Source: an archaeon (lineage in GTDB: Archaea; Iainarchaeota; Iainarchaeia; Iainarchaeales; 1-14-0-10-31-34). From it: a DNA stretch of 32,000 bases. Under the pieces are notes generated by a model. That model saw nothing but the letters and a program-made list of their open reading frames with translations, was not told where the DNA came from and made no database searches. The stretch spans positions 1-32,000 of the forward strand of contig JAJRVL010000011.1 of the NCBI GenBank assembly GCA_024277355.1, read 5' to 3'. How positions within the stretch are numbered: position 1 is the first letter of the stretch; every line of letters begins with the position of its first letter. The position numbers and the translations under genes were made by a program. This document shows, one piece after another, positions 1,684 to 28,358 of this stretch.

Positions 1684-4600
1684 TTATTCTGCAATGCATT
1701 CTGATTCAATACCTGTTTCTCTTGCAGTTAATTCACTTAATAATTTTTCTTTATTCCAGACAATATAAGTGAAATTTCCTTGATTTTTAACACATGCATA
1801 TTCAGAATCAATTAAATCAAATAATTCCTTTAATGAATCTGCACTTGAATTTGGAGCAGAATTAAAATGAGTTCCTGAAACTCCTTTTAATGGAATCCAG
1901 TTTCTTAAAGGTTCAGATGGATTGCTTGTATCTCCTGAAGAATAAAGTTTTATTTCACTAAAAGGATTATTTGAATAATCATTTATTTTAAAATAACTTA
2001 AAGGAACATTAACAGGAGAAAATAAAACTGAATGTAAAAAAGTTTTCCCTGTGTTTAACGGATTACTCCAAGATAACTTAAATACATTATCATAATCTAA
2101 ACCTAAATTTATGTTATCTGCATTAATTGTTTTTCTGTCAGAAAACAAAGTTCCTTCCGGATTTCCTGAAAAATCAACACAAGAACTTCCAATAGTTTTC
2201 CATTTAGTTAAATTGTCTGCTTCAATTAACTGCTTTTTATTTTCTGCATCAACTATTGAATAATAAATTAAAGCATTGTTTAATTCAGTTAAATCTGCTT
2301 TCATTAAAATCGGAGTAGCATAACTTGGATAAAATTTTGCTGTTCTTAAATTAGTTGAAACATCTCTTGCTAACTCCATTAAAGTTCCTTTATTTAAAGT
2401 AGAATTAAGTTTATTAAAATCATCAAACTGCCTTAACCATAAAGTAGTATAACCAGACAAACTAGAAGAAGAATAAATATCATTTCCTAATTCATTTAAT
2501 CTGAATAATCCATTAGGAGAAGTTACATCAAAACTTGAACCATAATTAATTCTGTTTAATTCACTTCCTTTTAATCCAATTTTTCCATCAAAAGGTATAT
2601 AATAAAAAACTGAATCTTCTGAACCCATTTCTGGTTCTAATTCAGAAGAAGGCTTAATTAAAGTAAATGAAAGAGAAATTAAATCAGCCTGAACATCAAC
2701 TGTTACATTATACCATCCTGGTAATTCAATTTCAGTTGAAGCACCTGAACTTAAATAAGAATCAACTGTTATATCAAATTTACTTTCAGCAAAATACTTT
2801 CTTACTAAATCATAATCTCCTTTATATGAAGTAGGCGTGTCATTGTTAACATTATTAGCCCAGTAATCAAAATCTTCAAAAAACTGGGAAGAAAAATTAT
2901 CTGTTATTAAAGTTGAATTAAAACTAAAAGAACCAGTTTTAGTTGCATCGCCTGCTTTAAACTGGATTAATCTGTAAATTAATTCCATTGAAAACTGCGA
3001 GGCATCACAGTATTTATAATCAACATAAGCTAAATTTTCTTTAGTGCATTTTCCAATTTCACTACTGACATTAAAAGAAGAAAAATTCCAGTTTAATTCA
3101 ATTTTTGGTTTTTGCAAAGAACAATCAGTTGATGCTGTTTCTTCGATACTGCATCCAACCCAAAAACTTACATCAAAGTTTGTTCCTGTTTCATTTAATG
3201 AACCTTCTCCAATACAAGCTTTTAAATCAAATGACTCTGATTCAATTGTTCCTGCAGAAGTTAATAATGAAACTTTAACTGGAATTGTTTTAGTGAAATC
3301 CCTTCCTTTAACAGAATACAATAAATCCAAAGAACCATTAATTATTCTGCTTGTCTCTAATGTTTGTCCTTCAGAAGTCAAAGTTAAAGTTAAACCAACA
3401 TTTCTTCCTTCGCTGTTTATGTCAATTGATTCAGCAAAAGAAGGAACTGAAACAAAAAATTCATTTAAATCAAAAATAACATCAGTTATTAAAGAAGAAT
3501 AATTATTCGAATAACTTTTTGCAAAAATATTTTTTTCAATTAAATTATCTGAATCAAGATAAAAAACATAATCAAGTCTATCAGGAGAAATTTCCATTGG
3601 ATTATCTGAAAGAATTACTGTTTCAAAAGGAACAACCAAAAAGTCTGGTGAATTATTTGCATCAAAAGTAAAAAGAATTGTTCCTGATGCAGTTTTTGTC
3701 TGAGTTATAGTTGAAGCAGAAGAAGCTAAAACTGAATCAAAATCAATTATTAAATCAGAAGAAATTATTTTTCCTTTATTTGTTTCTAATGATTCCTGCA
3801 TTGCAGTTAAATCAAGATAAATTGAATTAGAATCAATTTCAACTTCAGTTATTTTAATTTCAGGTACTCCATTATTTTTTTTCAAAGCAAACTGTTCAGT
3901 TAAATTAATTTTATTAAAAAATAATGAACCTGAAACAGGGTTTTCAGTACTTACTTGGGTTCCTCCAACAGGAAAATAAGCTGTTGCATAGTCTGAAACC
4001 CCTGGAACAGCATTAATTAATACAGTAAAAGGAATTGTTTCAAATAAAACATAGCTTCCTAATTCTATTTCTACATCAAGATTTCCATCAACTGAAACAT
4101 TTGAAGTTAAAGCATTTGTTTCAGCTGTATTAAGAGACAAATTTAATTCAGTTATTATTCCATCAGAAGTAAATGTCTGCCCTGAAAAACCAGTAAAAGA
4201 ATTTTCATCAAAAAATTCTAAATTAGAAAATAAACTTATTGAATAAGAATTAATTTTCTGGTTTAATAATCCATTAGATGAATCAAAAAAAGTAACTTCT
4301 TTTGATTTAATTCTTGAATCAGAAGAAGAAAAAACAAAAACTAAAGATTCAGGAGAAAAACTAAAAGTATTTGCATCTTGTACAATAACTTCTTTTGATG
4401 CAATTGCATCATCAAACTCTGCTGTTACTTCAATTAAAGAAAGAGGATATAATCCAGTGATTTTTTCTGCTCCGTCAAAAACTGCTTCACCTGATTCATT
4501 TGTTTCTTTTGGACCAAATAAAGTTTCTGAATTAGATACTGAATCAGTTATTTTTAGTTTTACTTCTGCTCCATTAACTGGATTTCCTTTTTCATCTAAT

Positions 4601-7600
4601 ACTTCAACTGTTAAAGGAGTTTCAGTAAAAGCATGGATTTCCTCAGGCAGTAAATTAATATTAAGGTTTAAATCACTCCTGATTCTTAATTCATGGAAAT
4701 TACTGTCAGAAAATCTTCCAGAATATACAGTTGTTTTTATTCCAGGAATTCTTCCCTCTAAGTTTTTCACTAATTTTACAGGTATAAAATTTGCATCAGC
4801 ATAAACTAATTCTTTTTCATTTAAAGAAAAAGTTTCAGTTATAATTCTGTCATTTGCTGTTCCTGAAAAAACATCTGATTTTGTTTTAATTAAATAATCA
4901 TCAAAAATTAATGCATTTAATGCTTCTGAAATTAATCCAGCAGAAGAATTTTCAACTGAAAAGTCAACAGAAGAGTAATCTTTATCATTGTTTAAAACAA
5001 AAGAAGATAATTTATAAAGACAATTAATTCTAATGCTTGAAACAGAACCAAAATCAAGAACTTCGCATAAAGTTTCAGTTGAAATGTCTGCAACTGAATA
5101 AGAATAACAAAAATCAGTATTGCATAAACTTAAGTCTTTTGTTTTATGATTTGAATAAGTGTAATCCTCTAAAGAAGTGAATTCTGTTTCATCTTCCGGA
5201 TCTAAAAAATATTCAGGACTGCTTCTGTTTTCTACAGCTAAAGCCTTGAAAAACAAAACTAAATTATTTGCATCAAATAAGCTTTCTTTTACTTTGATTT
5301 TAACTGGAACAATAAAAGAAGTTTCAGTGAATTCATCTTTATCATAATCAAAGTCATCAAATTCAACTAAAATTGCTTTTGCGTCTGCCTGAGTTGAATT
5401 AGATACAAAATCATTCTGGTAATTTCCTGTAAAAGAAGTTGTTTTTTTTACTTCAAATTGAGTAAAAGAAGTAAAAGGACTATCAAAAGAAGAAATAAAA
5501 ATTGAATCTTTTTCAATTGAATTTTCTCTTCCGGTTCCAATCAAAAAATTAAAATAAAAAATATTTGAATCAGGATTAACAGTAAATAAAAGATCTGCTG
5601 AATATTCCTGTCCTAAATTAATAGAAGTTGCAGGAAGCCCGTTTTCTTTAAATAATCCAATAAAATCAATTGAAACTTTTTCTGAAGACGAAATTTTTTT
5701 CAGAACAACATTAACTATTATTTTAGATTTAGGCAAAACTTCAAAGTCTTTTGTTTTAACTGAATAATAAGTTTCTTTTGAAATTACTGCATAATAATTT
5801 CCTTCATCAAAAGCAAAAGAATTAGTTTTTGGATTAAAAGAATATTTTGAGTCAGAAATTTTTCTTGCAGTTACTGCATTAAAAAATTCAATTTCAAAGT
5901 TTTCTATTTTTGCATTGGATTTTAATTCAGTTACATTTAATTCAATTATTCCTCTTATTTTTTCCATTTGAACTTCAAAAGCAGTTGTTTTGTTTGCATC
6001 AATTACTTTAGAAGAAGAAATGCCTTTCATGTCATTTGTTACTGCTTCAGCATAATACGTTCCAGGTTTAATGTTTTCAATTAAAGATTCTCCTTTAAAT
6101 CCAATTGAAGCAGAATAAGGAGTTCTTAAATCTTTTAAAGGACCTGAACCATATTTCAAAAACACGTTTCCTGAAGAAGCAGTGTTTCCTTTGTAATCCA
6201 AAACCTTAATTTTTGCTGAACCTGAATTTTGTTGTGTTGCTTTAACTAATTTAACAATTAAAGAATCCCCTTTTTTCAGTAATTCAGTTGTATTAAAATA
6301 AGGCAGATAACCCTGACTTGAAACTAAAACAATATATTCTCCGTCTTCTACAGCAAAAGAAGCATTAGAAACATTTTTTTTAACTGAAACAAATTCAAAT
6401 ATATTTCCGGTTTTTTCTCTTAATTCAACATCAGAAACAATAGATTCATTTGAAACAGAATCAACTACATTAATTGAAATTAAATCTTCTGTTCCGACAG
6501 CAAAACATTTTGCATTAAAAGTTACTTCTTCTCCTGTGTTAAGTGTTTGAGTTTTAGAAGGATTTTGACAGGAATAATTTGGAATTTCAGCTGAATCATA
6601 AACTTTAATGAAATAATCTCCTGCTAAAACATTAATGCTTTTTAATCCTGAATAAACTGAAACATTATCAAATCCTGAAACAGGACTTGAATTTCCTGCT
6701 TCAAACAAAGAAAATTTCATTTTATCTGAAATCAATGAATCTGATTCATCAAAAATTTTAACATGAATTGTTCCTGTTGGATCTTCTTTTTTAGTTAAAT
6801 ATAATTTAGTTCCAGCTAAAACTTGTTTTTCTATTTTTTTATAATCAGCTGATTCTGCACTAACTAAAACATTACCACAGCCTGATTTTTTTACTTTAAT
6901 TTGAATCATTCCATTAGTAGTCTGGCTTATTAAACCTCCGTCAGAAACTTCAATAAAAGAATTATCTTTAGAGCAATCAAATTCAGCTCTAATAAAATCA
7001 GTGATAACTGTCCCTGATTTTTTGTCATAAAACTTAATTGTTTTTGCTGCCCAGCTGTCTTCAAAAGAAATAACTTCTTTTTTCTTTAATTTAACCGTAA
7101 AAAATTGTTCTTTTTCTGTTAACTCAATTGTTTCATTAAAGTCATTAAAATCAGAAACATTTTTTACTTCAATTTTAATTACAGAAAATAAATCTAAATT
7201 AATTAATACAATTTGAGCATTTGCATCTGTTATAAATTTATTTTTATTTCCATCAATTGAAACAAAAACCTCAAAATCTGAAAGAATTTCATCAGAATTT
7301 TCTTTTTCTAAAGTAATAGTTAAAACAGCTTTTTCTTCTGCTGTAAAAAACAAAGACGAAAAAACCAAAAGCAATAAAACTAAAATTAATCCTGAAAATA
7401 AAACAAAAGAAGGAACAATTTTGTCTATTGGATCAATTACAGTATAAACTGGGATTTTTTCATTTAATTTATCTAAAACAGAATAATATTTATCTTCAAA
7501 AAAATAATAAAAAGCAGATAATTTTTCTTTTAAATTAACTGGTTCTTTTTCTTCTTTTTCCTGTTTATTTAGATCAAATGCAAATTTTCCTTTAAGTTCT

Positions 7601-7788
7601 GTTTTTTTGACTTCTTTACCTCTTAAAATTTCCTGTATTTGTTTTTTCTGCAAAAGCTTTTTTTCTGTTTTTTTGTTGTCTTGAGTTTGTTTTGATTCTT
7701 CTGTTTTTTCTTCAGGTTTTTTTTTCACTAATCCTTTTAAGGCATTTAATTCTTTTTCTAACTCAGCCATTACCATAACCTTCTCCAA
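1684..7788 (-). CDS. Giant (about 2030 aa) membrane-anchored surface protein with tandem beta-sandwich modules
   Basis: This is a single 6.1-kb ORF. It has a Lys/Glu-rich N-terminal segment of about 135 aa and one TM helix (VPSFVLFSGLILVLLLLVFSSLFF). About 1870 aa of Ser/Thr/Asn-rich sequence follows, with recurring G-[DEN]-Y strands (AGDYFIKVYD, DGEYIVLVSSQGY, PGTYYAEAV, EGNYYAVISKETY) typical of carboxypeptidase-regulatory/Ig-like folds. The ORF-track start is TTG 7788. ATG 7776 or ATG 7770 is more likely; ATG 7770 forms a TAATG overlap with the upstream stop. Confidence 0.85.
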   Translation of the reverse strand: MEKVMVMAELEKELNALKGLVKKKPEEKTEESKQTQDNKKTEKKLLQKKQIQEILRGKEVKKTELKGKFAFDLNKQEKEEKEPVNLKEKLSAFYYFFEDKYYSVLDKLNEKIPVYTVIDPIDKIVPSFVLFSGLILVLLLLVFSSLFFTAEEKAVLTITLEKENSDEILSDFEVFVSIDGNKNKFITDANAQIVLINLDLFSVIKIEVKNVSDFNDFNETIELTEKEQFFTVKLKKKEVISFEDSWAAKTIKFYDKKSGTVITDFIRAEFDCSKDNSFIEVSDGGLISQTTNGMIQIKVKKSGCGNVLVSAESADYKKIEKQVLAGTKLYLTKKEDPTGTIHVKIFDESDSLISDKMKFSLFEAGNSSPVSGFDNVSVYSGLKSINVLAGDYFIKVYDSAEIPNYSCQNPSKTQTLNTGEEVTFNAKCFAVGTEDLISINVVDSVSNESIVSDVELREKTGNIFEFVSVKKNVSNASFAVEDGEYIVLVSSQGYLPYFNTTELLKKGDSLIVKLVKATQQNSGSAKIKVLDYKGNTASSGNVFLKYGSGPLKDLRTPYSASIGFKGESLIENIKPGTYYAEAVTNDMKGISSSKVIDANKTTAFEVQMEKIRGIIELNVTELKSNAKIENFEIEFFNAVTARKISDSKYSFNPKTNSFAFDEGNYYAVISKETYYSVKTKDFEVLPKSKIIVNVVLKKISSSEKVSIDFIGLFKENGLPATSINLGQEYSADLLFTVNPDSNIFYFNFLIGTGRENSIEKDSIFISSFDSPFTSFTQFEVKKTTSFTGNYQNDFVSNSTQADAKAILVEFDDFDYDKDEFTETSFIVPVKIKVKESLFDANNLVLFFKALAVENRSSPEYFLDPEDETEFTSLEDYTYSNHKTKDLSLCNTDFCYSYSVADISTETLCEVLDFGSVSSIRINCLYKLSSFVLNNDKDYSSVDFSVENSSAGLISEALNALIFDDYLIKTKSDVFSGTANDRIITETFSLNEKELVYADANFIPVKLVKNLEGRIPGIKTTVYSGRFSDSNFHELRIRSDLNLNINLLPEEIHAFTETPLTVEVLDEKGNPVNGAEVKLKITDSVSNSETLFGPKETNESGEAVFDGAEKITGLYPLSLIEVTAEFDDAIASKEVIVQDANTFSFSPESLVFVFSSSDSRIKSKEVTFFDSSNGLLNQKINSYSISLFSNLEFFDENSFTGFSGQTFTSDGIITELNLSLNTAETNALTSNVSVDGNLDVEIELGSYVLFETIPFTVLINAVPGVSDYATAYFPVGGTQVSTENPVSGSLFFNKINLTEQFALKKNNGVPEIKITEVEIDSNSIYLDLTAMQESLETNKGKIISSDLIIDFDSVLASSASTITQTKTASGTILFTFDANNSPDFLVVPFETVILSDNPMEISPDRLDYVFYLDSDNLIEKNIFAKSYSNNYSSLITDVIFDLNEFFVSVPSFAESIDINSEGRNVGLTLTLTSEGQTLETSRIINGSLDLLYSVKGRDFTKTIPVKVSLLTSAGTIESESFDLKACIGEGSLNETGTNFDVSFWVGCSIEETASTDCSLQKPKIELNWNFSSFNVSSEIGKCTKENLAYVDYKYCDASQFSMELIYRLIQFKAGDATKTGSFSFNSTLITDNFSSQFFEDFDYWANNVNNDTPTSYKGDYDLVRKYFAESKFDITVDSYLSSGASTEIELPGWYNVTVDVQADLISLSFTLIKPSSELEPEMGSEDSVFYYIPFDGKIGLKGSELNRINYGSSFDVTSPNGLFRLNELGNDIYSSSSLSGYTTLWLRQFDDFNKLNSTLNKGTLMELARDVSTNLRTAKFYPSYATPILMKADLTELNNALIYYSIVDAENKKQLIEADNLTKWKTIGSSCVDFSGNPEGTLFSDRKTINADNINLGLDYDNVFKLSWSNPLNTGKTFLHSVLFSPVNVPLSYFKINDYSNNPFSEIKLYSSGDTSNPSEPLRNWIPLKGVSGTHFNSAPNSSADSLKELFDLIDSEYACVKNQGNFTYIVWNKEKLLSELTARETGIESECIAE

Positions 7789-10911: not shown

Positions 10912-12786
10912 TTAGTAATTTCCTAAATTAGTCTGCACAGGAGTAAAATGCTTAAAAGACTTTAATTCTTTTTCACTTAAGCCTAATTGTTTTTTTATTT
11001 TAAATGCGGTTTCATTTCCTATAATTCCGGCTAAATCATTTAATTCAGTTTTTTTTAGCAAAGCAATTGAATTAATATTTGAATTAAATAATTTTCTTGC
11101 TCTAACCCTTCCAATTCCTTTTAATTCAGTTAAAACTAATAATTCTTCTTTTATGCCGTATTTTATTCTTTTTCTTAATTTTGAAATCAAAGAAATAACA
11201 GATTTTTTTCCTGAAATTAAAGCTAATTCAGAAAAGCAATATAATAACCAGTCAGCAATCATTAATTTTGAACGAAGTATTCCGGGCTGAACATTAAATT
11301 CTTTCCTTAAAGTTTCTTCAGGAACTTCACTAATCCATTTGTTTAGCAATAAAGCAGAATTATATTTTTTTAATAAAGAAATATCAGAATAAAAGTCATC
11401 TGAATCAATTGGAAGAGAATCTGCTTCAACATTCATCTGTTCCCATAATTCTGTTTCTTTTGCTCTTGGAACAGAAAATAAAGGAAAAAATTCAAAAGCT
11501 GAAGTCAGCAAAAATAAAAAAGAAAAATTATTTAAATCTTTTTTAAATGAATCTAAAATCATTTTTGCAGTTAAAGGATCCAAAAAAAGTTCTGCAATTC
11601 TTTTGCCGATTAAAGTTGCCTTAAAAGATTTTTCATTTCCTTCAATAAACTTTAATTCCTTTAATTCAATTAAAACAGAATTAACTTTCAAAAATAATTC
11701 ATCTAATCCATTAAACTGAAAAGCATAAAAAGTCTTGGAAAAAAATTTTTCTAATGACTCTAAATCAAAAGCAAAACCAGTTGCAATTGCAGCTAAAACA
11801 TGGGTTCTTAAAACAGGTTCAATTCCTAATTTAGATGAAACTTCTTCTACATCCCCTAAAATAAATTCTTCTTTTAATTCATCCATTTCAAATTCATTCC
11901 CTGCAATTAACACGCTTTCCCCAACAGAATCAAATTTAGGCCTTCCGGCTCTTCCGCTCCATTGTTTATATTCTCTTACAGGAATTTTCTGATGCCCAAA
12001 AGCAGTATAACGAAAAACAGAAGGAATAATTACACGAAACGCAGGCAAATTAACTCCTGCTGCTAAAGTAGGCGTAGCAGAAATAACTTTAATTAAATTT
12101 TTTTTAAATAATTCTTCAACAACATCTCTTTGCTTTGCAAGCATTCCTGCATTATGAAAAGCAATGCCAGACTTAACTAAATTAGATAAAATTCTGCATT
12201 GTTCTGTTGGGTTTTCTAAGGCATTAAGAATTTCAAGAGATTTCTTAGACAAAAACTCTTTTTCCTTTACTAATAATGTCTTTTCCACTGTTTTTGCTAG
12301 TTTTTTTGCCATGCCAACAGTTCTTGGACGAGTATTGCAGAAAACTAATGCCTGCTTATTTTTTTCTAACGCATCTTTAACTAAGGCTTCAACTGGATCA
12401 GATATTGGATTAATTTTTTGTTTTCCTCTTAAAAAATGAATTTGGTTTTCAAAAAAAACTCCTTCATTTAATTTTACAGGACGAAAAGAACTTTCAATTA
12501 ATTTTGCATTAAGCCATTTGCTTAATTCTTTTGAGTTAGGGATTGTTGCACTTAAGCCCAACACCTGAATTTCAGGATTTAAAATTAAAAGTTTTGTTGT
12601 CATTATTTCAATTGTCGGACCTCTATCTGAATCAATTTCATGGATTTCGTCAATTATAAGCAGACCTATTTGTTTAAGCCATTCTGATTTATGCCTTAAT
12701 AATGATTCAGTTTTTTCATAAGTAGTAAAAATAACATCATAATTATGCAGATATTTAGAAGAAGAATCAAAGTCTCCTGTTGACAT
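10912..12786 (-). CDS. hel308: Hel308/Ski2-like DNA helicase, C-terminal 624-aa fragment (frameshifted from the N-terminal fragment)
   Basis: Helicase motifs are present: DEIH (LLIIDEIHEI), SAT (LGLSATIPN), ATPTLAAGVNLPA and QWSGRAGRP, plus a C-terminal HhH-like LKGIGRVRARKL. It begins at STGDFDS, which normally follows motif Ia. Confidence 0.9.
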   Translation of the reverse strand: MSTGDFDSSSKYLHNYDVIFTTYEKTESLLRHKSEWLKQIGLLIIDEIHEIDSDRGPTIEIMTTKLLILNPEIQVLGLSATIPNSKELSKWLNAKLIESSFRPVKLNEGVFFENQIHFLRGKQKINPISDPVEALVKDALEKNKQALVFCNTRPRTVGMAKKLAKTVEKTLLVKEKEFLSKKSLEILNALENPTEQCRILSNLVKSGIAFHNAGMLAKQRDVVEELFKKNLIKVISATPTLAAGVNLPAFRVIIPSVFRYTAFGHQKIPVREYKQWSGRAGRPKFDSVGESVLIAGNEFEMDELKEEFILGDVEEVSSKLGIEPVLRTHVLAAIATGFAFDLESLEKFFSKTFYAFQFNGLDELFLKVNSVLIELKELKFIEGNEKSFKATLIGKRIAELFLDPLTAKMILDSFKKDLNNFSFLFLLTSAFEFFPLFSVPRAKETELWEQMNVEADSLPIDSDDFYSDISLLKKYNSALLLNKWISEVPEETLRKEFNVQPGILRSKLMIADWLLYCFSELALISGKKSVISLISKLRKRIKYGIKEELLVLTELKGIGRVRARKLFNSNINSIALLKKTELNDLAGIIGNETAFKIKKQLGLSEKELKSFKHFTPVQTNLGNY

Positions 12787-12800
12787 AGTTGATTTAATGT

Positions 12801-13055
12801 TTAATTCAGAATACTTTTTTTGAATTCACGGAAATGCTCTGACGCCAAAGCCTTTAACGGACAGGCATAAATAACTTTTTTTTTCTTATTTATGACTGAA
12901 TTTAATGCAGTTAATTCTCCAATTAAAGTTTTTCCTGAAGCAGTAGGAGAAGAAACAATAACATTTGAATCAAATAAACCAGCTTTAATTGCTTTTTCCT
13001 GCATTGGATTAAATTCAATTGAATTGATTTCTTTTACTTTTTGAATTACATCCAT
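12801..13055 (-). CDS. hel308: Hel308/Ski2-like DNA helicase, N-terminal 84-aa fragment (Q motif and Walker A)
   Basis: From ATG 13055 the sequence is MDVIQKVKEINSIEFNPMQEKAIKAGL...SSPTASGKT...ACPLKALASEHFREFKK. The 5' part of the ORF-track call (13056..13184) looks like spurious extension. The fragment ends 14 nt before the C-terminal fragment, in a different frame. Confidence 0.85.
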   Translation of the reverse strand: MDVIQKVKEINSIEFNPMQEKAIKAGLFDSNVIVSSPTASGKTLIGELTALNSVINKKKKVIYACPLKALASEHFREFKKSILN

Positions 13056-13158
13056 TAAAGAAAGAATAAGAAAAGAAAATAAAAAGGATTTGACAGTTAA
13101 CTGCAGGTGAAAAACATAATAATTAACTTTAAAACTGTTTCTACATAATAGTTTTTTT

Positions 13159-13284
13159 ATGGTTTCAGAAAAACAAAAAAACACATTTCTAGTTTTAGTT
13201 ATCCTGCTTGTAATATTTATTTCATTGTTTTTTGCTTACCAAAACGGAGTAATAGGAAAAGCAATAATTTCAGGTTTTAGTTAA
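13159..13284 (+). CDS. Possible 41-aa single-TM micropeptide (speculative)
   Basis: ATG 13159 to TAA 13282-13284 encodes MVSEKQKNTFLVLVILLVIFISLFFAYQNGVIGKAIISGFS, a charged N-terminus followed by a 20-aa hydrophobic helix. No nearby SD is present. It lies in the 225-bp gap upstream of hel308. Confidence 0.2.
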   Translation: MVSEKQKNTFLVLVILLVIFISLFFAYQNGVIGKAIISGFS

Positions 13285-21943: not shown

Positions 21944-23584
21944 CTAATTTATTTCATAAATTCTTGTTTCTTTATTCTCAAAAATTTTATCAAAAGAATT
22001 ACTATCATTAAATTTTCTTAAATGCGTTGCAGGTTTCATTAATTCATTTGCAGGCTGAACCATTAAAGAATCCATGTCTTTAGTTAAAAGCAAATGCGTT
22101 GCTTCATACTGATTTAATCTTAATACAGCCTGAAAAATATTTGAATCAAAATAAATAGGAATAATTTCATTTTCCATATAATCACCAAACTCTAATTTAG
22201 CATTAACAACACTTAATCCTGTTTTTAATCCAACTGCTTTAGCCATTTTAACATCGCTGTAAATTCTTGATTTTTCATTTAAGTTTTCTTTAATCCATTG
22301 AATTGAATTCAAATGCTTTTCATTAAACTGTTCATATTTATATTGAGGAGTTTGAGTAAAAAATACAAAAGGAATTAATAAAACAAAAACAAAAAATACA
22401 GCTAAAAAAGAATGCTTTAGAAAACTTGTTTTCATTTCATTTAATCCAATAAGGCAAAGTATTGACAAAAAAAAGAAAATCATTGATGCTCCTCTGTTAG
22501 AAATAAAAGCAAAAGAAAAAAGCATGAAAAGCCCTATAATAGAATAAAGTATAGCTTGAGAAAAAATAAAAGATTTAATTAAATTGTTTTTTAAAATAAA
22601 AGATTTTATTTTATTGAAATTAAAGATTAATAAGCTTAAAACAACAAAAAAAGGAATAAAATACCTTAAAATACTGTAAGAGAAATCTTTTTCTAAATAA
22701 TATTCAGAAAAAGGCAGATTAGGAAACAAAAAAGAAGGCAAAAAATTCATTTCAGAGAAATTATATATTAAAGCACCAATATTCCATGAAATCTGATTTA
22801 AAATATTAACAAAAGAAAAGACAAGAAGCAAAAGAAAAATTAACAAAAAAGAATTCAAATGAATCTGCTTAACTTTAATTTCCTTTTTTTTAAAGAAAAA
22901 ATAAATCAAAAAAAACAGCAGTAAAGGAAGAATACTTAATGCAAAAGCACTTTTATCTGAATAAACTGAAAGAACAGAAAAAAACAGCAGTAAAAACAGG
23001 TTTTTTGATTTAAAAGAAAAACCTTGTTTAAGGAATTTCACTAAAAAATACAATGACATTGCCCCGAAAATTCTAACAAAAAACCAGCCGTGAATTGAAA
23101 TTTTATAGTACAATGGTTCAAAAGGAAATAGTACTACAAGCAAAGACAAAGTTAAAGCAAGAATATCTTTCCTGAATATTTCTCTGAATAAAACAAAAAA
23201 AGCCAAAGCTGCAATAAAAATCAAAAAATAAAAATGATTAAATAAAAAATACAAATCCAAGCCTGATAAAAAATTAAATATTGCCGCTGAAAGAACAGGA
23301 ATAGTAAAAAAAATAAGGTTTTTTTTTGAAAAAAACCTGTCAAAAAAATAGAAGTTAGTTGTATTTTCATTTCTTAAAAAAGACCATCCGGAAAACCTAA
23401 TGGCCTCAAATTTTTCACCTATTGTATCTGCTTTATTTTTTTCTTTAATAAATTCTGCTGCACTAAAATGCCTAAACATATAAGGGTCTCTATAAAGCGA
23501 AGTGGGAGAAGTCAATTCAATAACTAACCCTGAAATAAGACAAAATAAAGCCAGTAGAAAAATAATTTTAGTTTCTTTTTTCAT
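21944..23584 (-). CDS. Polytopic membrane protein with C-terminal soluble domain, GT-C-like glycosyltransferase or polymerase candidate
   Basis: It has about 12 or more hydrophobic helices followed by a soluble tail of about 130 aa. It overlaps the GT1 gene by 17 bp (23568..23584), which implies co-translation. The fold assignment rests on architecture alone. Confidence 0.45.
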   Translation of the reverse strand: MKKETKIIFLLALFCLISGLVIELTSPTSLYRDPYMFRHFSAAEFIKEKNKADTIGEKFEAIRFSGWSFLRNENTTNFYFFDRFFSKKNLIFFTIPVLSAAIFNFLSGLDLYFLFNHFYFLIFIAALAFFVLFREIFRKDILALTLSLLVVLFPFEPLYYKISIHGWFFVRIFGAMSLYFLVKFLKQGFSFKSKNLFLLLFFSVLSVYSDKSAFALSILPLLLFFLIYFFFKKKEIKVKQIHLNSFLLIFLLLLVFSFVNILNQISWNIGALIYNFSEMNFLPSFLFPNLPFSEYYLEKDFSYSILRYFIPFFVVLSLLIFNFNKIKSFILKNNLIKSFIFSQAILYSIIGLFMLFSFAFISNRGASMIFFFLSILCLIGLNEMKTSFLKHSFLAVFFVFVLLIPFVFFTQTPQYKYEQFNEKHLNSIQWIKENLNEKSRIYSDVKMAKAVGLKTGLSVVNAKLEFGDYMENEIIPIYFDSNIFQAVLRLNQYEATHLLLTKDMDSLMVQPANELMKPATHLRKFNDSNSFDKIFENKETRIYEIN

Positions 23585-24713
23585 TTAATGCTTCCTCAAA
23601 TAAATTAATTAGTTTTTTTATTTCTTTTTCTGAAGAAAATTCTTTTGCTTTTTTTAATGAATTTAATCCCATTTCTTTTGCTTTGCTTTTGTTTGTTAAA
23701 ATAAAAGAAATTGCTTTAGTCAATTTTTTCGTGTTTTTTGGTTCCACAAGAAAACCATTAAATTTGTCTTTAATTACTGCAGGAATTCCTCCAACAGTAC
23801 TTCCTATAACTGGCTTGGAAAAAGCCATTACTTCCAATAAAACTAAACCAAATCCTTCTGAATCATTAATTGAAGGAAGAATTAATGTTTCACATTCAGA
23901 ATAAAAAAACAATAATTGTGATTGATAAACAGTTCCTGCAAAAAAAACATTTTTTTCTATTTCAAGATTTTTTGTTAATTTCTTAAAATAATTAATATTG
24001 TTGCCTTCTCCTATAACCACAAGCATTAAATCAGGAAAAGCGTTTTTAAGTTCAGCAACTGACTTAATTAAATAATTTAATCCTTTGTATTTTTGTCCTT
24101 TATTTAACGCTCCTACAAATAAAATAATTCTGTTTTTAGAAAAAATCTGTTTTTTGGTTTTTAAAGTGAATTCATTTAAATCAATAAAAGGATGAATAGC
24201 CATAGTTTTTCCTGAAAAAGATTTAAGCAAAAGAGATTTTTTTGCATAATAATCAGATAAAACAATTATTTTTCTGCTTAACTCAAAAGTTTTTTTTAAA
24301 ATAAAAGAATAATAAAAATTAAGGAAAATTTTTTCAGTGAATTTTTGTTTTACATAATCATTGAAATAAAACAAGAAAAAAGGAATATTTTTTTGTTTTG
24401 CAATTCTTGCAGCAGAATCAGCCATAAAAGGAGTGGATAATGAACCTGCAATTATTTCAGGTTTTTCTTTTTCAATTACTTTCTTTAAAGAAAAATTCCA
24501 GAAATTAAAAGGCGTATTAGAATACTTAAACATGTAATTTTCTGAATAAATTTTTATTCCATTAATATTTCTTGCAGTCTTAGTTGAAGTAAAAACAATT
24601 ATTTCATGATTTTTTTTCTTTAATTCTCTGCATATTCTAAGAATATGGTTTTCTGCCCCTCCAATAAAAGGAAAGAATTCAGGGGAAACAAACAAAATCT
24701 TCATTGACATCAC
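23568..24713 (-). CDS. Glycosyltransferase, GT1 Pfam family (GT-B fold, CAZy GT4-like)
   Basis: The N-terminal MKILFVSPEFFPFIGGAENH and the C-terminal EX7E region PSINDSEGFGLVLLEVMAFSKPVIGSTVGGIPAVI are both present. Confidence 0.88.
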   Translation of the reverse strand: MMSMKILFVSPEFFPFIGGAENHILRICRELKKKNHEIIVFTSTKTARNINGIKIYSENYMFKYSNTPFNFWNFSLKKVIEKEKPEIIAGSLSTPFMADSAARIAKQKNIPFFLFYFNDYVKQKFTEKIFLNFYYSFILKKTFELSRKIIVLSDYYAKKSLLLKSFSGKTMAIHPFIDLNEFTLKTKKQIFSKNRIILFVGALNKGQKYKGLNYLIKSVAELKNAFPDLMLVVIGEGNNINYFKKLTKNLEIEKNVFFAGTVYQSQLLFFYSECETLILPSINDSEGFGLVLLEVMAFSKPVIGSTVGGIPAVIKDKFNGFLVEPKNTKKLTKAISFILTNKSKAKEMGLNSLKKAKEFSSEKEIKKLINLFEEALNEKRN

Positions 24714-24772: not shown

Positions 24773-25054
24773 ATGAATTCAGAGGAAAGACTGTTTATTG
24801 CATTAATTAAAGGCAATGTTACAGCAAAAGATTATGAAAACATTGACTGGAATGAATTTATTAAACTGGCTTATTACCACAGAATAACTGGTTTTATTGC
24901 TAAAAAATTAAATAAAAAACTTATTTCAGAAAAAACAATAAAACAAATAAATAAATTAAATAAAATAATTATTTCAAAAAACCTTATTTTGAACAATGAA
25001 ATGATTTCATTATTTAAAGAATTTAAAAAAAAAGAATTGAATTTATTGCAATAA
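24773..25054 (+). CDS. Uncharacterised nucleotidyltransferase family (NTP_transf_5-like), N-terminal fragment
   Basis: The N-terminal helical region contains LAYYHRITGFIAKKL. It terminates just after an A9 run, and the family's KG.AL...YP..R..DiDlL core continues in the -1 frame. Confidence 0.7.
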   Translation: MNSEERLFIALIKGNVTAKDYENIDWNEFIKLAYYHRITGFIAKKLNKKLISEKTIKQINKLNKIIISKNLILNNEMISLFKEFKKKELNLLQ

Positions 25055-25059
25055 AAGGA

Positions 25060-25818
25060 ATGGCATTAAATAATTTTATTTATCCTGAAAGTTTTTTACG
25101 GGTTTCAAGCGATATTGATTTTCTGATAAAAGAAAAAGAATACTCTGAAATAAAAAAAACTACAGAAAAAAAAGGATTTAAGGAAAGTAACTTCTGGTTA
25201 TGGGAAAAACAGTTGTTTTATCACCATTACCCTATACTTGAAAAAAATGTTAATGGATTAAATTGCATGATTGAACCGCATAAAGAATTAATTTTTCCTG
25301 TTAATCCTTTTGAAATAGATTTAAAAGAAATATGGCGTGACAGAATTGAAATTAATGATATTTTTATTCCTTCAATTGAAGATTCACTTATTTTAACTGC
25401 ATTAAGTTCAGTTTATCAGCATAATTTTTACGGAATGTTTGAAGGGTTGATTGATGCAAAAAATCTTATGAAAAAAAACATTAATTACACAAAACTAAAA
25501 GAAAAAACAGAAAAATATAATGTAATTGAAATAATGATTTATTTTAATGAATTAATAAAAGAAATTTTTGGGAATGGAATTAAAGGAATAAAAGAATTAG
25601 AAGAAAAGGCAGATAAAAAAAAGCTGGATTATTTAAAGGAAAAATCATTAGAAAAAATAATTAAAATTCAGGATAAAAAAGAAATTGATTCTGAAATAAT
25701 CAAAAACAGGTTTTATTGGGCTAAAGGAATAAAACAAAAAACAAAAGTATTAATTTTTGTTTTAAACCATAAACTTTTATCTGCTGTGTGGAAAATAAGA
25801 AAAAGAAAAAAAATTTAA
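25060..25818 (+). CDS. Uncharacterised nucleotidyltransferase family (NTP_transf_5-like), C-terminal fragment
   Basis: The frame is open from 25027 and reads (KKRIEFIAIKG)MALNNFIYPESFLRVSSDIDFLIKEKEY...FYHHYP...IEPHKELIFP, matching the PF14907-type signature as I remember it. Confidence 0.75.
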   Translation: MALNNFIYPESFLRVSSDIDFLIKEKEYSEIKKTTEKKGFKESNFWLWEKQLFYHHYPILEKNVNGLNCMIEPHKELIFPVNPFEIDLKEIWRDRIEINDIFIPSIEDSLILTALSSVYQHNFYGMFEGLIDAKNLMKKNINYTKLKEKTEKYNVIEIMIYFNELIKEIFGNGIKGIKELEEKADKKKLDYLKEKSLEKIIKIQDKKEIDSEIIKNRFYWAKGIKQKTKVLIFVLNHKLLSAVWKIRKRKKI

Positions 25819-27047: not shown

Positions 27048-28121
27048 TTATTTATTTACACTTTCTTTTGCGATTTTCTTTTTGTTTTTAAGTTCAGTTT
27101 TTGCAATTTTCTGTAATTCAATATCTTTATTTAATTCATTTAAAAGCATTTTATTAATGCTTTTTTTTTCATAAGGACTCAAACTAAAAACACAAAAATC
27201 ACATAAACTTGCATACCCTTGTAATACTTTTTTTACTTTATTCACTTTTTTAAGTTTGTTTTTTTTTGCGAGATCAAAAATAAAAGCAGGGCCTTTATGT
27301 CTCAAATAAAAAACAAAAATATTTTTTCTGTAAGCTTCAATTGATTTTTTATGTGAATCAGTATTAAAATCTGCAAACTTAAAAGCCGTATTTGATCCTT
27401 CAAATCCATTACAACAAACAAACATTTTACCATCGTGATTTATTGTTGGTTTTCCTAAGAAAGGGCATTTTTGTTTAAGCAGTTTTTTATTTGAAATAAA
27501 ATAGGTTTTATTAGAGACATTTTTAGCTGCTCTTCCTGCCGGAACAAGAATTTGACTTAACACATGAAAAGGCTTTTTATCTGCATGTATTTTAGTAAAA
27601 TATTCTTTATTATTTACTAAAAAATCCAAAAAAGAATAATCTTTTGAAACAGCAACCCTTAAAATAATTTGAAGTTTTTTATATTTCCTTGCAGCATCAA
27701 AAATATTAATTATATTTTTTTCAGGAATAAATTTAACGTGAAAATTATCTGTGCTTATATTAAGACACATTAATCCTGCAGAAACAAGCTTTGAAAGCAT
27801 TTTTTCTGTTTTTTCAGGACTTGAACCCCAAAAACCGTTGCTTATAAGTTTAGGGTTTACTTTGTTTTTTTTTGCAGCAGAAAAAAGAGCAATCATTTCA
27901 TCAAAATATAATAAAGGTTCTCCTCCTGTAAACCCTATTTCTTTTATTCCTTCTTCTTTTAACAAAGGCAAAACACTTAAACAAGTATTCAAATCTACTT
28001 TAGATGTTTCAAAAGGCCCGCAGTTATTAATACAATGATCACATTTGATATTGCATTTTTTTGTGTAAATAAATTCCAAAGAAATAATTGGATTAAATAT
28101 CTTTAAATTTTTAGTATCCAC
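27048..28121 (-). CDS. Radical SAM enzyme with C-terminal partial SPASM/twitch-like Cys motif
   Basis: CNIKCDHC is the CX3CX2C motif, and GFTGGEPLL is the SAM-binding GGE motif. The C-terminal motifs are C-x11-G-x4-CC (CPFLGKPTINHDGKMFVCC) and CDFC. Start is GTG 28121; there is no in-frame ATG upstream of the cluster motif. Confidence 0.85.
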   Translation of the reverse strand: MDTKNLKIFNPIISLEFIYTKKCNIKCDHCINNCGPFETSKVDLNTCLSVLPLLKEEGIKEIGFTGGEPLLYFDEMIALFSAAKKNKVNPKLISNGFWGSSPEKTEKMLSKLVSAGLMCLNISTDNFHVKFIPEKNIINIFDAARKYKKLQIILRVAVSKDYSFLDFLVNNKEYFTKIHADKKPFHVLSQILVPAGRAAKNVSNKTYFISNKKLLKQKCPFLGKPTINHDGKMFVCCNGFEGSNTAFKFADFNTDSHKKSIEAYRKNIFVFYLRHKGPAFIFDLAKKNKLKKVNKVKKVLQGYASLCDFCVFSLSPYEKKSINKMLLNELNKDIELQKIAKTELKNKKKIAKESVNK

Positions 28122-28253
28122 AAAAAAAAAAGAGAATGAGAACTGTTTAAAAAATTATTGAATAAACAGCAACAAGTTAGGAAACCCTTATAAAAAAACA
28201 ATAGCATATTTATTTAAATATAAACTGAGTTATATTTTAGAGGAAGTATTAAT

Positions 28254-28358
28254 ATGACTTATGAAAAACCAGCTATAAAAAAACTTAATATAAAAACAGC
28301 ATCAAGCGGAGGGACTACCTTCCTAATAGAGGTTGCACCAAGCACTACTTCAGCTTAA
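28254..28358 (+). CDS. Candidate RiPP precursor peptide (34 aa), not in the supplied ORF track
   Basis: ATG 28254 to TAA 28356-28358 encodes MTYEKPAIKKLNIKTASSGGTTFLIEVAPSTTSA. AGAGGAAG lies 8-15 nt upstream and an AT-rich TATA-like tttaaatataaa lies at 28213-28224. The ORF is divergent from the radical SAM gene (132 bp) and 25 bp upstream of the next gene. It has a YxxPxI leader motif, and the core-coding DNA is visibly GC-richer than its surroundings. Confidence 0.55.
   Translation: MTYEKPAIKKLNIKTASSGGTTFLIEVAPSTTSA

Follow-up and report, generated by a model that had tools for sequence, protein, structure and literature searches.

We report here that a short open reading frame (ORF) at positions 28254-28358 of an archaeal DNA stretch is a real gene, conserved within a limited set of DPANN archaea, and that it encodes, with a probability that we estimate at about 0.6, the precursor of a peptide that ribosomes synthesize and that is modified after translation (a RiPP). 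The stretch, hereafter the window, comprises 32,000 nucleotides (contig JAJRVL010000011.1, positions 1 to 32,000, assembly GCA_024277355.1). In Iainarchaeota-like DPANN archaea the peptide would be modified by an adjacent radical S-adenosylmethionine (SAM) enzyme and by helper proteins. Judged from its sequence and its modelled fold, this enzyme is a full-length homologue of the Bacillus subtilis epimerase YydG, also named EpeE. An earlier reading made from the DNA letters of the window (the original prediction) had proposed a lasso peptide at this place. The peptide is not a lasso peptide.

The translation of the ORF, MTYEKPAIKKLNIKTASSGGTTFLIEVAPSTTSA, is free of Cys, as stated in the original prediction, and the gene caller of the sequence collection predicts the same ORF. 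Homologues were collected from the contigs of radical SAM homologues, by profile scans of genomes and metagenomes and by searches with a profile of the peptide itself. We obtained 12 distinct homologous peptides of 30-43 amino acids, all on contigs of Iainarchaeota-like DPANN archaea and all encoded divergently from, and adjoining, the same radical SAM gene. Two of the loci (designated here by L numbers) carry taxon labels, Candidatus Iainarchaeum for L008 and 'Micrarchaeota' for GCA_043820085.1, and both are DPANN archaea. We also scanned 1.84 billion representative proteins exhaustively with HMMER; eight matches to the peptide profile were returned, and no other family. When ten of the peptides were scanned against Pfam and NCBIfam at E ≤10, no precursor family was found; the sole match (TLTLP, E 0.058) is meaningless.

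In the alignment of the ten peptides available at that stage, Y3, K5 and P6 are invariant and I8 and N12 are conserved at about 90%; the two homologues found later both keep the Tyr, the Lys and the Pro. The N-terminal consensus is Y-x-K-P-x-I/V-x-x-L-N-I/V-K or, with the start included, M-x-Y-E/K-K-P-x-I/V-K-x-L-N-I/V-K; the leader is basic. In the 12-codon leader block, pairwise divergence at the three codon positions is 0.27, 0.12 and 0.41, with 152 synonymous versus 174 non-synonymous codon differences. Past about residue 15, both sequence and length vary across the family, and the C-terminal 16-29 residues are hypervariable. These regions are rich in Ser, Thr, Ala, Gly and Ile, contain no Cys and form neutral cores, whose composition is 19% Thr, 15% Ala, 15% Ser and 11% Gly (34% for Ser and Thr together). 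Ile, Val or Leu is present in every core and a conserved cross-link partner in none; the last residue is A, T, G, N or F and never Ser. Even among close relatives the length of the core shifts: L004 and L090 are identical at 0.70 of the nucleotides in the core versus 0.83-0.86 in the flanks. The conservation of the ORF and of the Y3/P6/I8 motif is far beyond chance. Among the residues which the original prediction had singled out, Y3 and P6 are constant, but G20 and E26 are not conserved.

The gene also has its own TATA element. An exact copy of the archaeal consensus TTTAAATA was found within 80 nt upstream of the start codon in 8 of 11 loci, and in six of these it lies at -37 to -41. Given a background of 2.1e-4 per nucleotide, the binomial P is about 5e-13, a value which is optimistic because the loci are related. 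We consider this element as the probable promoter of the peptide gene, on the strength of its sequence and position. A scan for sigma-70 promoters and terminators is uninformative here, the host being archaeal.

The product of the divergent radical SAM gene is probably the enzyme which modifies the core. Its six homologues are 44-56% identical to it. Among curated models the best one is NCBIfam TIGR04078 (YydG epimerase), with 139.5 bits over positions 8-297 of 309, and a profile of the family searched against the PDB matched the YydG structures 8AI1-8AI6 with E 2e-34, the next protein being SkfB (E 5e-9). The pairwise alignment to YydG spans residues 10-316, and in it the CX3CX2C motif, the C-P motif, the C-C pair and the C-terminal CxxC motif are all aligned. 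C23, C27 and C30 are invariant, as are C219, C236, C307 and C310, which are aligned with the C-P, C-C and CxxC cysteines of YydG and are predicted to be cluster ligands. A further invariant residue, C237, falls in this alignment on the YydG C-C pair's second Cys, at chain position 248; this position corresponds to native Cys223 if the PDB chain of 344 residues is made of the 319-residue protein and a 25-residue tag. The AlphaFold2 (AF2) model of the enzyme has a mean predicted local distance difference test score (pLDDT) of 81, and its nine best Foldseek matches are all EpeE (E 6e-20, template modelling (TM) scores 0.70/0.77), the next family having a TM score of 0.48.

EpeE epimerises Val and Ile at C-alpha without any need for a substrate Cys, and its Cys223 is the hydrogen-atom donor (PMC5682303, PMC13012085). 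The radical SAM enzyme had been discounted in the original prediction on the ground that the peptide lacks Cys. This objection does not stand, since the enzyme is of the YydG/EpeE type and the known chemistry of that type requires no Cys. Since its radical SAM motif already starts at residue 23, the enzyme has no N-terminal RiPP recognition element (RRE).

The peptide gene is physically coupled to the radical SAM gene. In locus L003, the two genes have moved as a pair to another slot, between AAA18 and p380, and they sit there without the genes for the PqqD, ScmC-like and NTP_transf_5 proteins alongside. The lipoprotein-like gene which follows the peptide in the window has stayed behind in this locus with the S24-like gene and AAA18, which argues against a tight linkage of that gene to the peptide.

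Chemistry diverges within the superfamily of YydG-like enzymes, as locus L094 illustrates. There (4973-5483), four small ORFs for Cys-rich peptides, e.g. MTNILSRYSVWKDNSVSSEVEVAPCSGCDDVCGCPGACSDQ, come in tandem after a bacterial YydG-like radical SAM gene (27% identity); this cluster is probably a RiPP cluster of the thioether type. In L093 (1051-1371), an ORF of 106 amino acids lies upstream of another YydG-like radical SAM gene (26% identity). Its product begins with a long helical stretch that looks like a leader and ends in a region rich in Gly, Ile and Thr (...GRGGPGIGPIATDSRGTIM); this tail resembles the archaeal core of L002 (GATGIGPADTIG), and the product may be a proteusin-like substrate.

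How could the enzyme be supplied with its substrate? In lasso precursors, a YxxPxL motif at -17 to -12 of the leader binds the RRE, and the RRE stimulates the tailoring kinase (PMC10368454). The leader studied here has a motif of this kind, with Ile or Val at the place of the Leu, and a PqqD-type protein is encoded nearby; on both points the original prediction was right. The best NCBIfam models for the PqqD protein are the lasso PqqD (B1) chaperones, with 39 bits, under their cut-offs of 70-80, versus 22 bits for the PqqD model of pyrroloquinoline quinone (PQQ) biosynthesis, and its match in the PDB is TbiB1 (E 0.015). By its family membership, this protein is probably a stand-alone RRE which binds the leader. 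When the Tyr is placed at -17 (the lasso register), position -2 is Ser or Thr in 7 of the 12 peptides (Thr in three) and Ala or Ile in the others, and position -1 is Gly in six. An [S/T]-G pair is semi-conserved at -2/-1.

Two further proteins could act on the peptide. The first one, related to HprK and to the ScmC family, has matches far under the model cut-offs, and its homologues carry a precomputed match to Pfam PF27840 (ScmC). H148, G168-K169-x-T171 and D185 are invariant and the P-loop reads G-x4-GK-S/T-T; we take the pattern formed by His148, the P-loop and Asp185 to resemble the core of HPr kinase. Lasso tailoring kinases of the PadeK/ThcoK type have a His-Lys-Asp-Asp motif, to which H148, K169 and D185 may or may not be equivalent. 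Based on these features, the protein is possibly a Ser/Thr kinase acting on the peptide. The original prediction had seen the Ser/Thr-rich tail as a site for an HprK-like kinase; an HprK-related protein is indeed encoded here and most cores are rich in Ser and Thr, but no member of the family ends in Ser. The first characterised lasso kinases act on a C-terminal Ser. An internal Ser can also be a kinase target, as known for BsfK (PMC10368454). The second protein has the nucleotidyltransferase fold of NTP_transf_5 and is a possible tailoring enzyme. A PDB sequence search with the ScmC-like profile and with NTP_transf_5 gave nothing relevant, only a spurious match to a DEAD helicase.

The genes of this module evolve faster than their surroundings: the radical SAM, ScmC-like and NTP_transf_5 proteins are 43-59% identical between loci versus 60-89% for the flanking proteins. 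The most conserved protein of the module is PqqD (57-67%), which parallels the conservation of the leader.

We propose the following scheme. The basic, conserved leader would bind the stand-alone PqqD protein, as happens between leader and recognition element in the lasso and PQQ systems, and PqqD would present the neutral, hypervariable core to the YydG/EpeE-like enzyme, which has no recognition domain. The enzyme would abstract a hydrogen atom from residues of the core; the most likely outcome would be an L-to-D epimerisation of residues of the Ile/Val type, quenched by the Cys equivalent to Cys223 of EpeE. We favour epimerisation because EpeE is the closest enzyme, no Cys is needed and the hypervariable core has no conserved cross-link partners. 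The ScmC/HprK-like protein may then phosphorylate Ser or Thr residues of the core, and the NTP_transf_5 protein may decorate it further, like the K and N enzymes of lasso clusters. The leader could be cut off close to residues 18-19, where [S/T]-G is semi-conserved, and the S24-like peptidase and the lipoprotein-like protein are mere candidates for leader cleavage or export.

The coordinates of all these features are collected in Table 1.

Table 1. Features of the peptide locus, in positions of the 32,000-nucleotide window.
Feature	Position	Strand	Remarks
Putative RiPP precursor gene, 34 aa plus stop	28254..28358	+	coding constraint in the leader, hypervariable core, 12 distinct homologues
Conserved leader block, Y3-K14	28260-28295	+	
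Leader, residues 1-19 in the lasso register	28254-28310	+	
Variable core, residues 20-34 in the lasso register	28311-28355	+	
TTTAAATA, archaeal TATA-box consensus	28213..28220	+	probable promoter of the peptide gene, 41 nt 5' of its start codon
Radical SAM enzyme, 357 aa, YydG/EpeE-like	27048..28121	-	divergent from the peptide gene; probable core-modifying enzyme
PqqD-family protein, 85 aa	26769..27026	+	Pfam PqqD, E 6e-13; probable RRE
HprK-related/ScmC-family P-loop protein, 302 aa	25826..26734	+	NCBIfam HprK_rel_B, E 1e-6; ScmC, E 1e-5
NTP_transf_5 (PF14907) nucleotidyltransferase-fold gene	24773..25818	+	split, 24773-25054 / 25060-25818; Pfam matches on both halves
Lipoprotein-like protein, 322 aa	28378..29346	+	N-terminal hydrophobic segment ending ...FFSGC; membership of the system uncertain
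S24/S26 signal-peptidase-I-like protein, 137 aa	29343..29756	+	Pfam Peptidase_S24, E 3e-9

The DNA of the core stands out by its base composition. Stretch 28302-28355 has a G+C content of 0.50 versus 0.27 for the whole window, which places it in the top 0.6% of the 54-nt windows, and it is the sole stretch of such a G+C content in the 3' two-thirds of the window. The original prediction had interpreted this as a constraint on the amino-acid sequence. The patch itself is real, and the core is richer in G+C than the leader in all ten loci examined (0.35-0.57 in the core, 0.17-0.36 in the leader), but the cores cannot be aligned and their sequence is not conserved. Because the patch recurs without conservation of the core sequence or of an RNA structure, its richness in G+C reflects a composition in Gly, Ala, Ser, Thr and Pro codons and not a constraint on one particular sequence.

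Other explanations of the locus were weighed. The patch could be a structured RNA, or the true gene could lie on the other strand, as an antisense ORF (28259-28345) running in the same direction as the radical SAM gene; we find this extremely improbable. The patch of the window does fold better than shuffled sequences (z -2.0 to -2.6), but the z values of the nine other loci range from -0.9 to +0.75, the DNA of the core is not conserved, and neither Rfam (at the gathering threshold and at E ≤1) nor a tRNA scan gave anything overlapping the peptide gene. A conserved RNA structure, which the original prediction had named as an outcome that would overturn it, did not materialise and was rejected, the folding signal being confined to the copy of the window. 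As for the antisense ORF, the frame which shares third-codon positions with the peptide gene is mostly open in most loci, because stops in it would require Tyr, His or Gln codons in the sense frame. Since third positions coincide, codon-position statistics cannot tell the strands apart, and the decision came from the start codons and from the conservation of the amino acids. In 10 of 11 loci the sense ORF begins with ATG, whereas the antisense frame lacks an ATG in 6 of 11 and, in L123, any start codon at all, and its conservation is lower (identity 0.56 versus 0.68 for the sense frame, BLOSUM 2.5 versus 3.9). The antisense ORF was rejected on these grounds. A lasso peptide with a Gly1-Glu7 macrolactam, whose cyclase and leader protease would be encoded elsewhere in the genome, would account for the leader at lasso spacing, for the frequent Ser or Thr at -2, for a PqqD protein closest to lasso B1 models and for K- and N-type genes like those of some lasso clusters; it is nevertheless very unlikely. 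The first core residues of the 12 peptides are G, G, S, A, G, G, L, D, D, R, P and G, five of them thus being L, D, R or P, an Asp or Glu occupies core positions 7-9 in only 3-4 of the 12, and four of the post-leader regions contain no acidic residue at all. The pair formed by Gly20 and Glu26 in the window, on which the proposed macrolactam was founded, is coincidental. Moreover, no Pfam domain of an Asn-synthetase-like cyclase (Asn_synthase) or of a transglutaminase-like B2 protease was found in the window ORFs of at least 80 amino acids, in agreement with the lack of a nearby cyclase already noticed from the letters, nor in the 11-17-kb syntenic loci L001, L008 and L124, nor in the genes called for L001, L004 and L124. 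With donor and acceptor residues unconserved and both enzymes absent from these loci, we rejected the lasso macrolactam.

The pairing of PqqD with a radical SAM enzyme would also be expected for the precursor of a cofactor, like PqqA or the mycofactocin precursor, and the PQQ system does offer a parallel, since a small peptide recognised by PqqD is passed there to a radical SAM partner (PqqE) without its own RRE, as proposed here. PqqA has a similar N-terminal aromatic-x-K-P-x-hydrophobic motif (W-K-K-P-A-F-x-D-L-R-L), our comparison with PqqA being that of the hidden Markov model (HMM) scans, which were negative. However, cofactor precursors keep their reacting residues strictly, whereas the whole core is hypervariable here and has no conserved Glu/Tyr pair, hence no Glu-x3-Tyr. 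Genes of the PqqB/C/E type are absent from the window, the PQQ PqqD model scores below the lasso models, and neither PqqA nor any other precursor was matched in Pfam or NCBIfam at E ≤10. We rejected a PqqA-like cofactor precursor, which has a very small probability in our view. The ORF might also encode a small protein other than a RiPP, or be a regulatory upstream ORF, for instance of the lipoprotein-like gene, and its closeness to the PqqD and radical SAM genes would then be coincidental. This gene does begin 20 nt past the peptide stop, broad synteny weakens the argument of adjacency, and L007 has the radical SAM gene without the peptide. Yet a conserved N-terminus followed by a hypervariable C-terminus with indels is a RiPP signature, the opposite of what arrest-peptide upstream ORFs exhibit; the leader contains a motif known to bind RREs, and an RRE protein is encoded beside it; and in L003 the peptide goes with the radical SAM gene and not with the lipoprotein-like gene. 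We regard this explanation as improbable. More serious, although still unlikely, is the possibility that the peptide is a RiPP precursor subject to another chemistry, such as an ether or C-C cross-link or beta-/gamma-hydrogen chemistry on Thr or Ile, or that the radical SAM enzyme is not the enzyme of the peptide, with only the PqqD, kinase-like and nucleotidyltransferase proteins acting on it. Chemistry does vary at this distance, as the Cys-rich peptides beside the L094 enzyme (which keeps the C-C pair) indicate, the enzyme scores under the YydG cut-off and lacks the Asp210 of EpeE, and the cores contain much Ser and Thr. Against it, EpeE is by a wide margin the closest full-length relative in both sequence and fold, no partner residue for a cross-link is conserved in the hypervariable core, and the pair formed by the radical SAM gene and the peptide moves in L003 without PqqD, ScmC or NTP_transf_5.

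Several observations weigh against a RiPP modified by an EpeE-like epimerase and its helpers. Some of them concern the enzyme. The equivalog cut-off of TIGR04078 is 300 bits, which the 139.5 bits of our protein do not reach, and the identity to EpeE is only 22-23%. The counterpart of EpeE Asp210, the residue altered by mutation in PDB 8AI6, is a Gly at about residue 223, in a CPFLG motif found in most archaeal members, with gaps nearby in the alignment. The C-C motif also occurs in distant relatives beside Cys-rich peptides, such as L094; because these keep it, the motif is necessary but not diagnostic of an epimerase, and we rejected its use as a diagnostic. Others concern gene order. Synteny is broad and extends to the housekeeping flanks (the beta-CASP proteins are 89% identical), so that adjacency, taken by itself, is weak evidence. 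In L003 and L007, neither PqqD nor ScmC nor NTP_transf_5 adjoins the radical SAM gene, and in L007 (1-300) this gene lies between AAA18 and p380 with a 96-nt spacer devoid of a peptide ORF. In L126 (3-1252), the place of the PqqD neighbour is taken by a tandem pair of radical SAM paralogues, of which one is truncated by the contig end. No exporter or dedicated protease was identified in the locus.

The helper proteins add to these points. The kinase assignment is based on weak HMM matches and on the P-loop; an AF2 model of the ScmC-like protein built with four sequences had a pLDDT of 33 and was discarded. The lack of a C-terminal Ser in the family differs from the substrates of kinases of the paeninodin type. 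Finally, the NTP_transf_5 gene is split by a frameshift into two different frames, with a run of nine A (25033-25041) at the junction. It is intact (346-365 amino acids) in L001, L004, L005, L008 and L124, so the break is either a homopolymer error of the assembly or a recent pseudogene. The gene of the Hel308-type helicase (10912-13184, minus strand) is split as well, into 12801-13184 and 10912-12786, in different frames and with a run of seven A at about 12815-12821 near the junction. A second break associated with a homopolymer within 32 kb points to assembly indel errors.

Compared with known systems, the locus has most in common with two. Like the EpeX/EpeE (YydF/YydG) system of B. subtilis, it has a short, Cys-free precursor beside a radical SAM enzyme that shares the EpeE fold, with the CX3CX2C motif, the cysteines of the C-terminal auxiliary cluster and the Cys223 equivalent, and its cores contain Ile or Val, residue types which EpeE epimerises. 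It differs from it by the low identity and sub-threshold score of the enzyme, by the Gly in place of Asp210, by a precursor unrelated to EpeX and by an archaeal host. Moreover, PqqD, HprK/ScmC-like and NTP_transf_5 proteins are present here and absent from epeXEPAB, whereas the EpeP protease and the EpeAB transporter are not present here. Epipeptides have been described as restricted to Bacillota (PMC13012085).

The second likeness is with tailored lasso clusters, those of paeninodin (PadeK), pseudomycoidin (PsmK/PsmN) and Bradymonas (BsfB1/K/N). These share the Y-x-x-P-x-[L/I/V] motif set at an equal distance from a small [S/T]-G junction, a discrete RRE of the PqqD type, a protein related to HPr kinase, a protein of the nucleotidyltransferase fold and a Ser/Thr-rich core. 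Unlike them, our locus has neither cyclase nor B2 protease; residues that would form a ring are not conserved, the peptides never end in Ser, and a radical SAM enzyme is found instead. The lasso K and N enzymes modify a Ser of the linear precursor by phosphorylation and then hexosylation (PMC9266682, PMC8498205); the resemblance of our kinase-like and NTP_transf_5 proteins to them is a parallel in gene set. The system resembles a hybrid which combines the leader, the RRE and the K/N set of tailored lasso clusters with the core enzyme of epipeptides, and it is a member of neither group.

A third comparison can be made with the SynChlorMet (SCM) cassette, which also associates a PqqD-like protein, a protein of the ScmC family and a radical SAM enzyme; ScmC and ScmD are the second- and third-best models for the two proteins of our locus. 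Their scores are low, 25 bits versus a cut-off of 125 for ScmC and 32.7 versus 100 for ScmD, and the enzyme here is YydG-like: YydG is the best radical SAM model, and ScmE and ScmF, a SPASM pair, are not among the best 25. Our literature search on this cassette, which is uncharacterised, found no paper; the cassette is not known to have an identified precursor.

More tentatively, and with considerable doubt, we suggest that the locus represents a class of archaeal RiPPs not described before and known so far only from Iainarchaeota-like DPANN archaea, in which a lasso-type leader/B1 module has recombined with an EpeE-like epimerase and a kinase/nucleotidyltransferase pair, giving short, hypervariable, linear peptides which contain D-amino acids and are possibly decorated with phosphate or sugars. 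RiPPs have barely been explored in archaea. Our literature search found none described in the genome-reduced DPANN symbionts, and a search on radical SAM RiPPs of DPANN and other archaea found no paper describing this system. If our reading is correct, peptide epimerases of the EpeE type exist beyond Bacillota and can depend on an RRE; as an epipeptide-like system, this one would then be the first outside Bacillota and also the first with a trans-acting RRE. The lasso leader/B1 pair would then be a portable module which evolution has attached to a different core enzyme, and which would be useful for engineering leader-guided epimerisation. It would also provide an identified substrate for uncharacterised sets of PqqD, ScmC/HprK-like and NTP_transf_5 genes, making their chemistry directly testable. 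The interest lies in the host lineage and in the proposed modular recombination, the system being, as a general kind, a probable RRE-dependent radical SAM RiPP. A core which diversifies fast in host-attached organisms suggests a role in interactions between symbiont and host or with competitors.

Downstream of the peptide, the lipoprotein-like gene is found in most loci. Its product is the fastest-evolving neighbour (31-46% identity) and has no family in Pfam or NCBIfam. The S24-like gene which comes next is syntenic in all long loci, as are the flanking housekeeping genes, and is followed by an AAA_18 kinase gene; its product scores 44 bits with the NCBIfam model of archaeal signal peptidase I, whose cut-off is 51.85. 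A role as leader peptidase is speculative for this protein and a housekeeping one equally likely. The remaining genes of the window are archaeal housekeeping genes, encoding Cdc6/Orc1, the Hel308-type helicase, NAC, FKBP, a proteasome subunit and FttA.

Directly upstream of the NTP_transf_5 gene, at 21944-24713 on the minus strand, genes for a GT4 glycosyltransferase and for a polytopic membrane protein of 546 amino acids (with a weak match to DUF2206) are syntenic in all long loci; they could have a role in the peptide system or in general surface glycosylation. An ORF of 2034 amino acids (1684-7788, minus strand), with only weak matches to Big_1 and CarboxypepD_reg, probably encodes a giant surface protein, and two further ORFs of about 500 amino acids without a family come after it. 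In L124 (46-3348, GCA_043820085.1), the FttA/beta-CASP gene encodes 1100 amino acids and contains an intein with Intein_splicing and LAGLIDADG domains, which interrupts a sequence otherwise 90-93% identical to the 628-amino-acid copy of the window.

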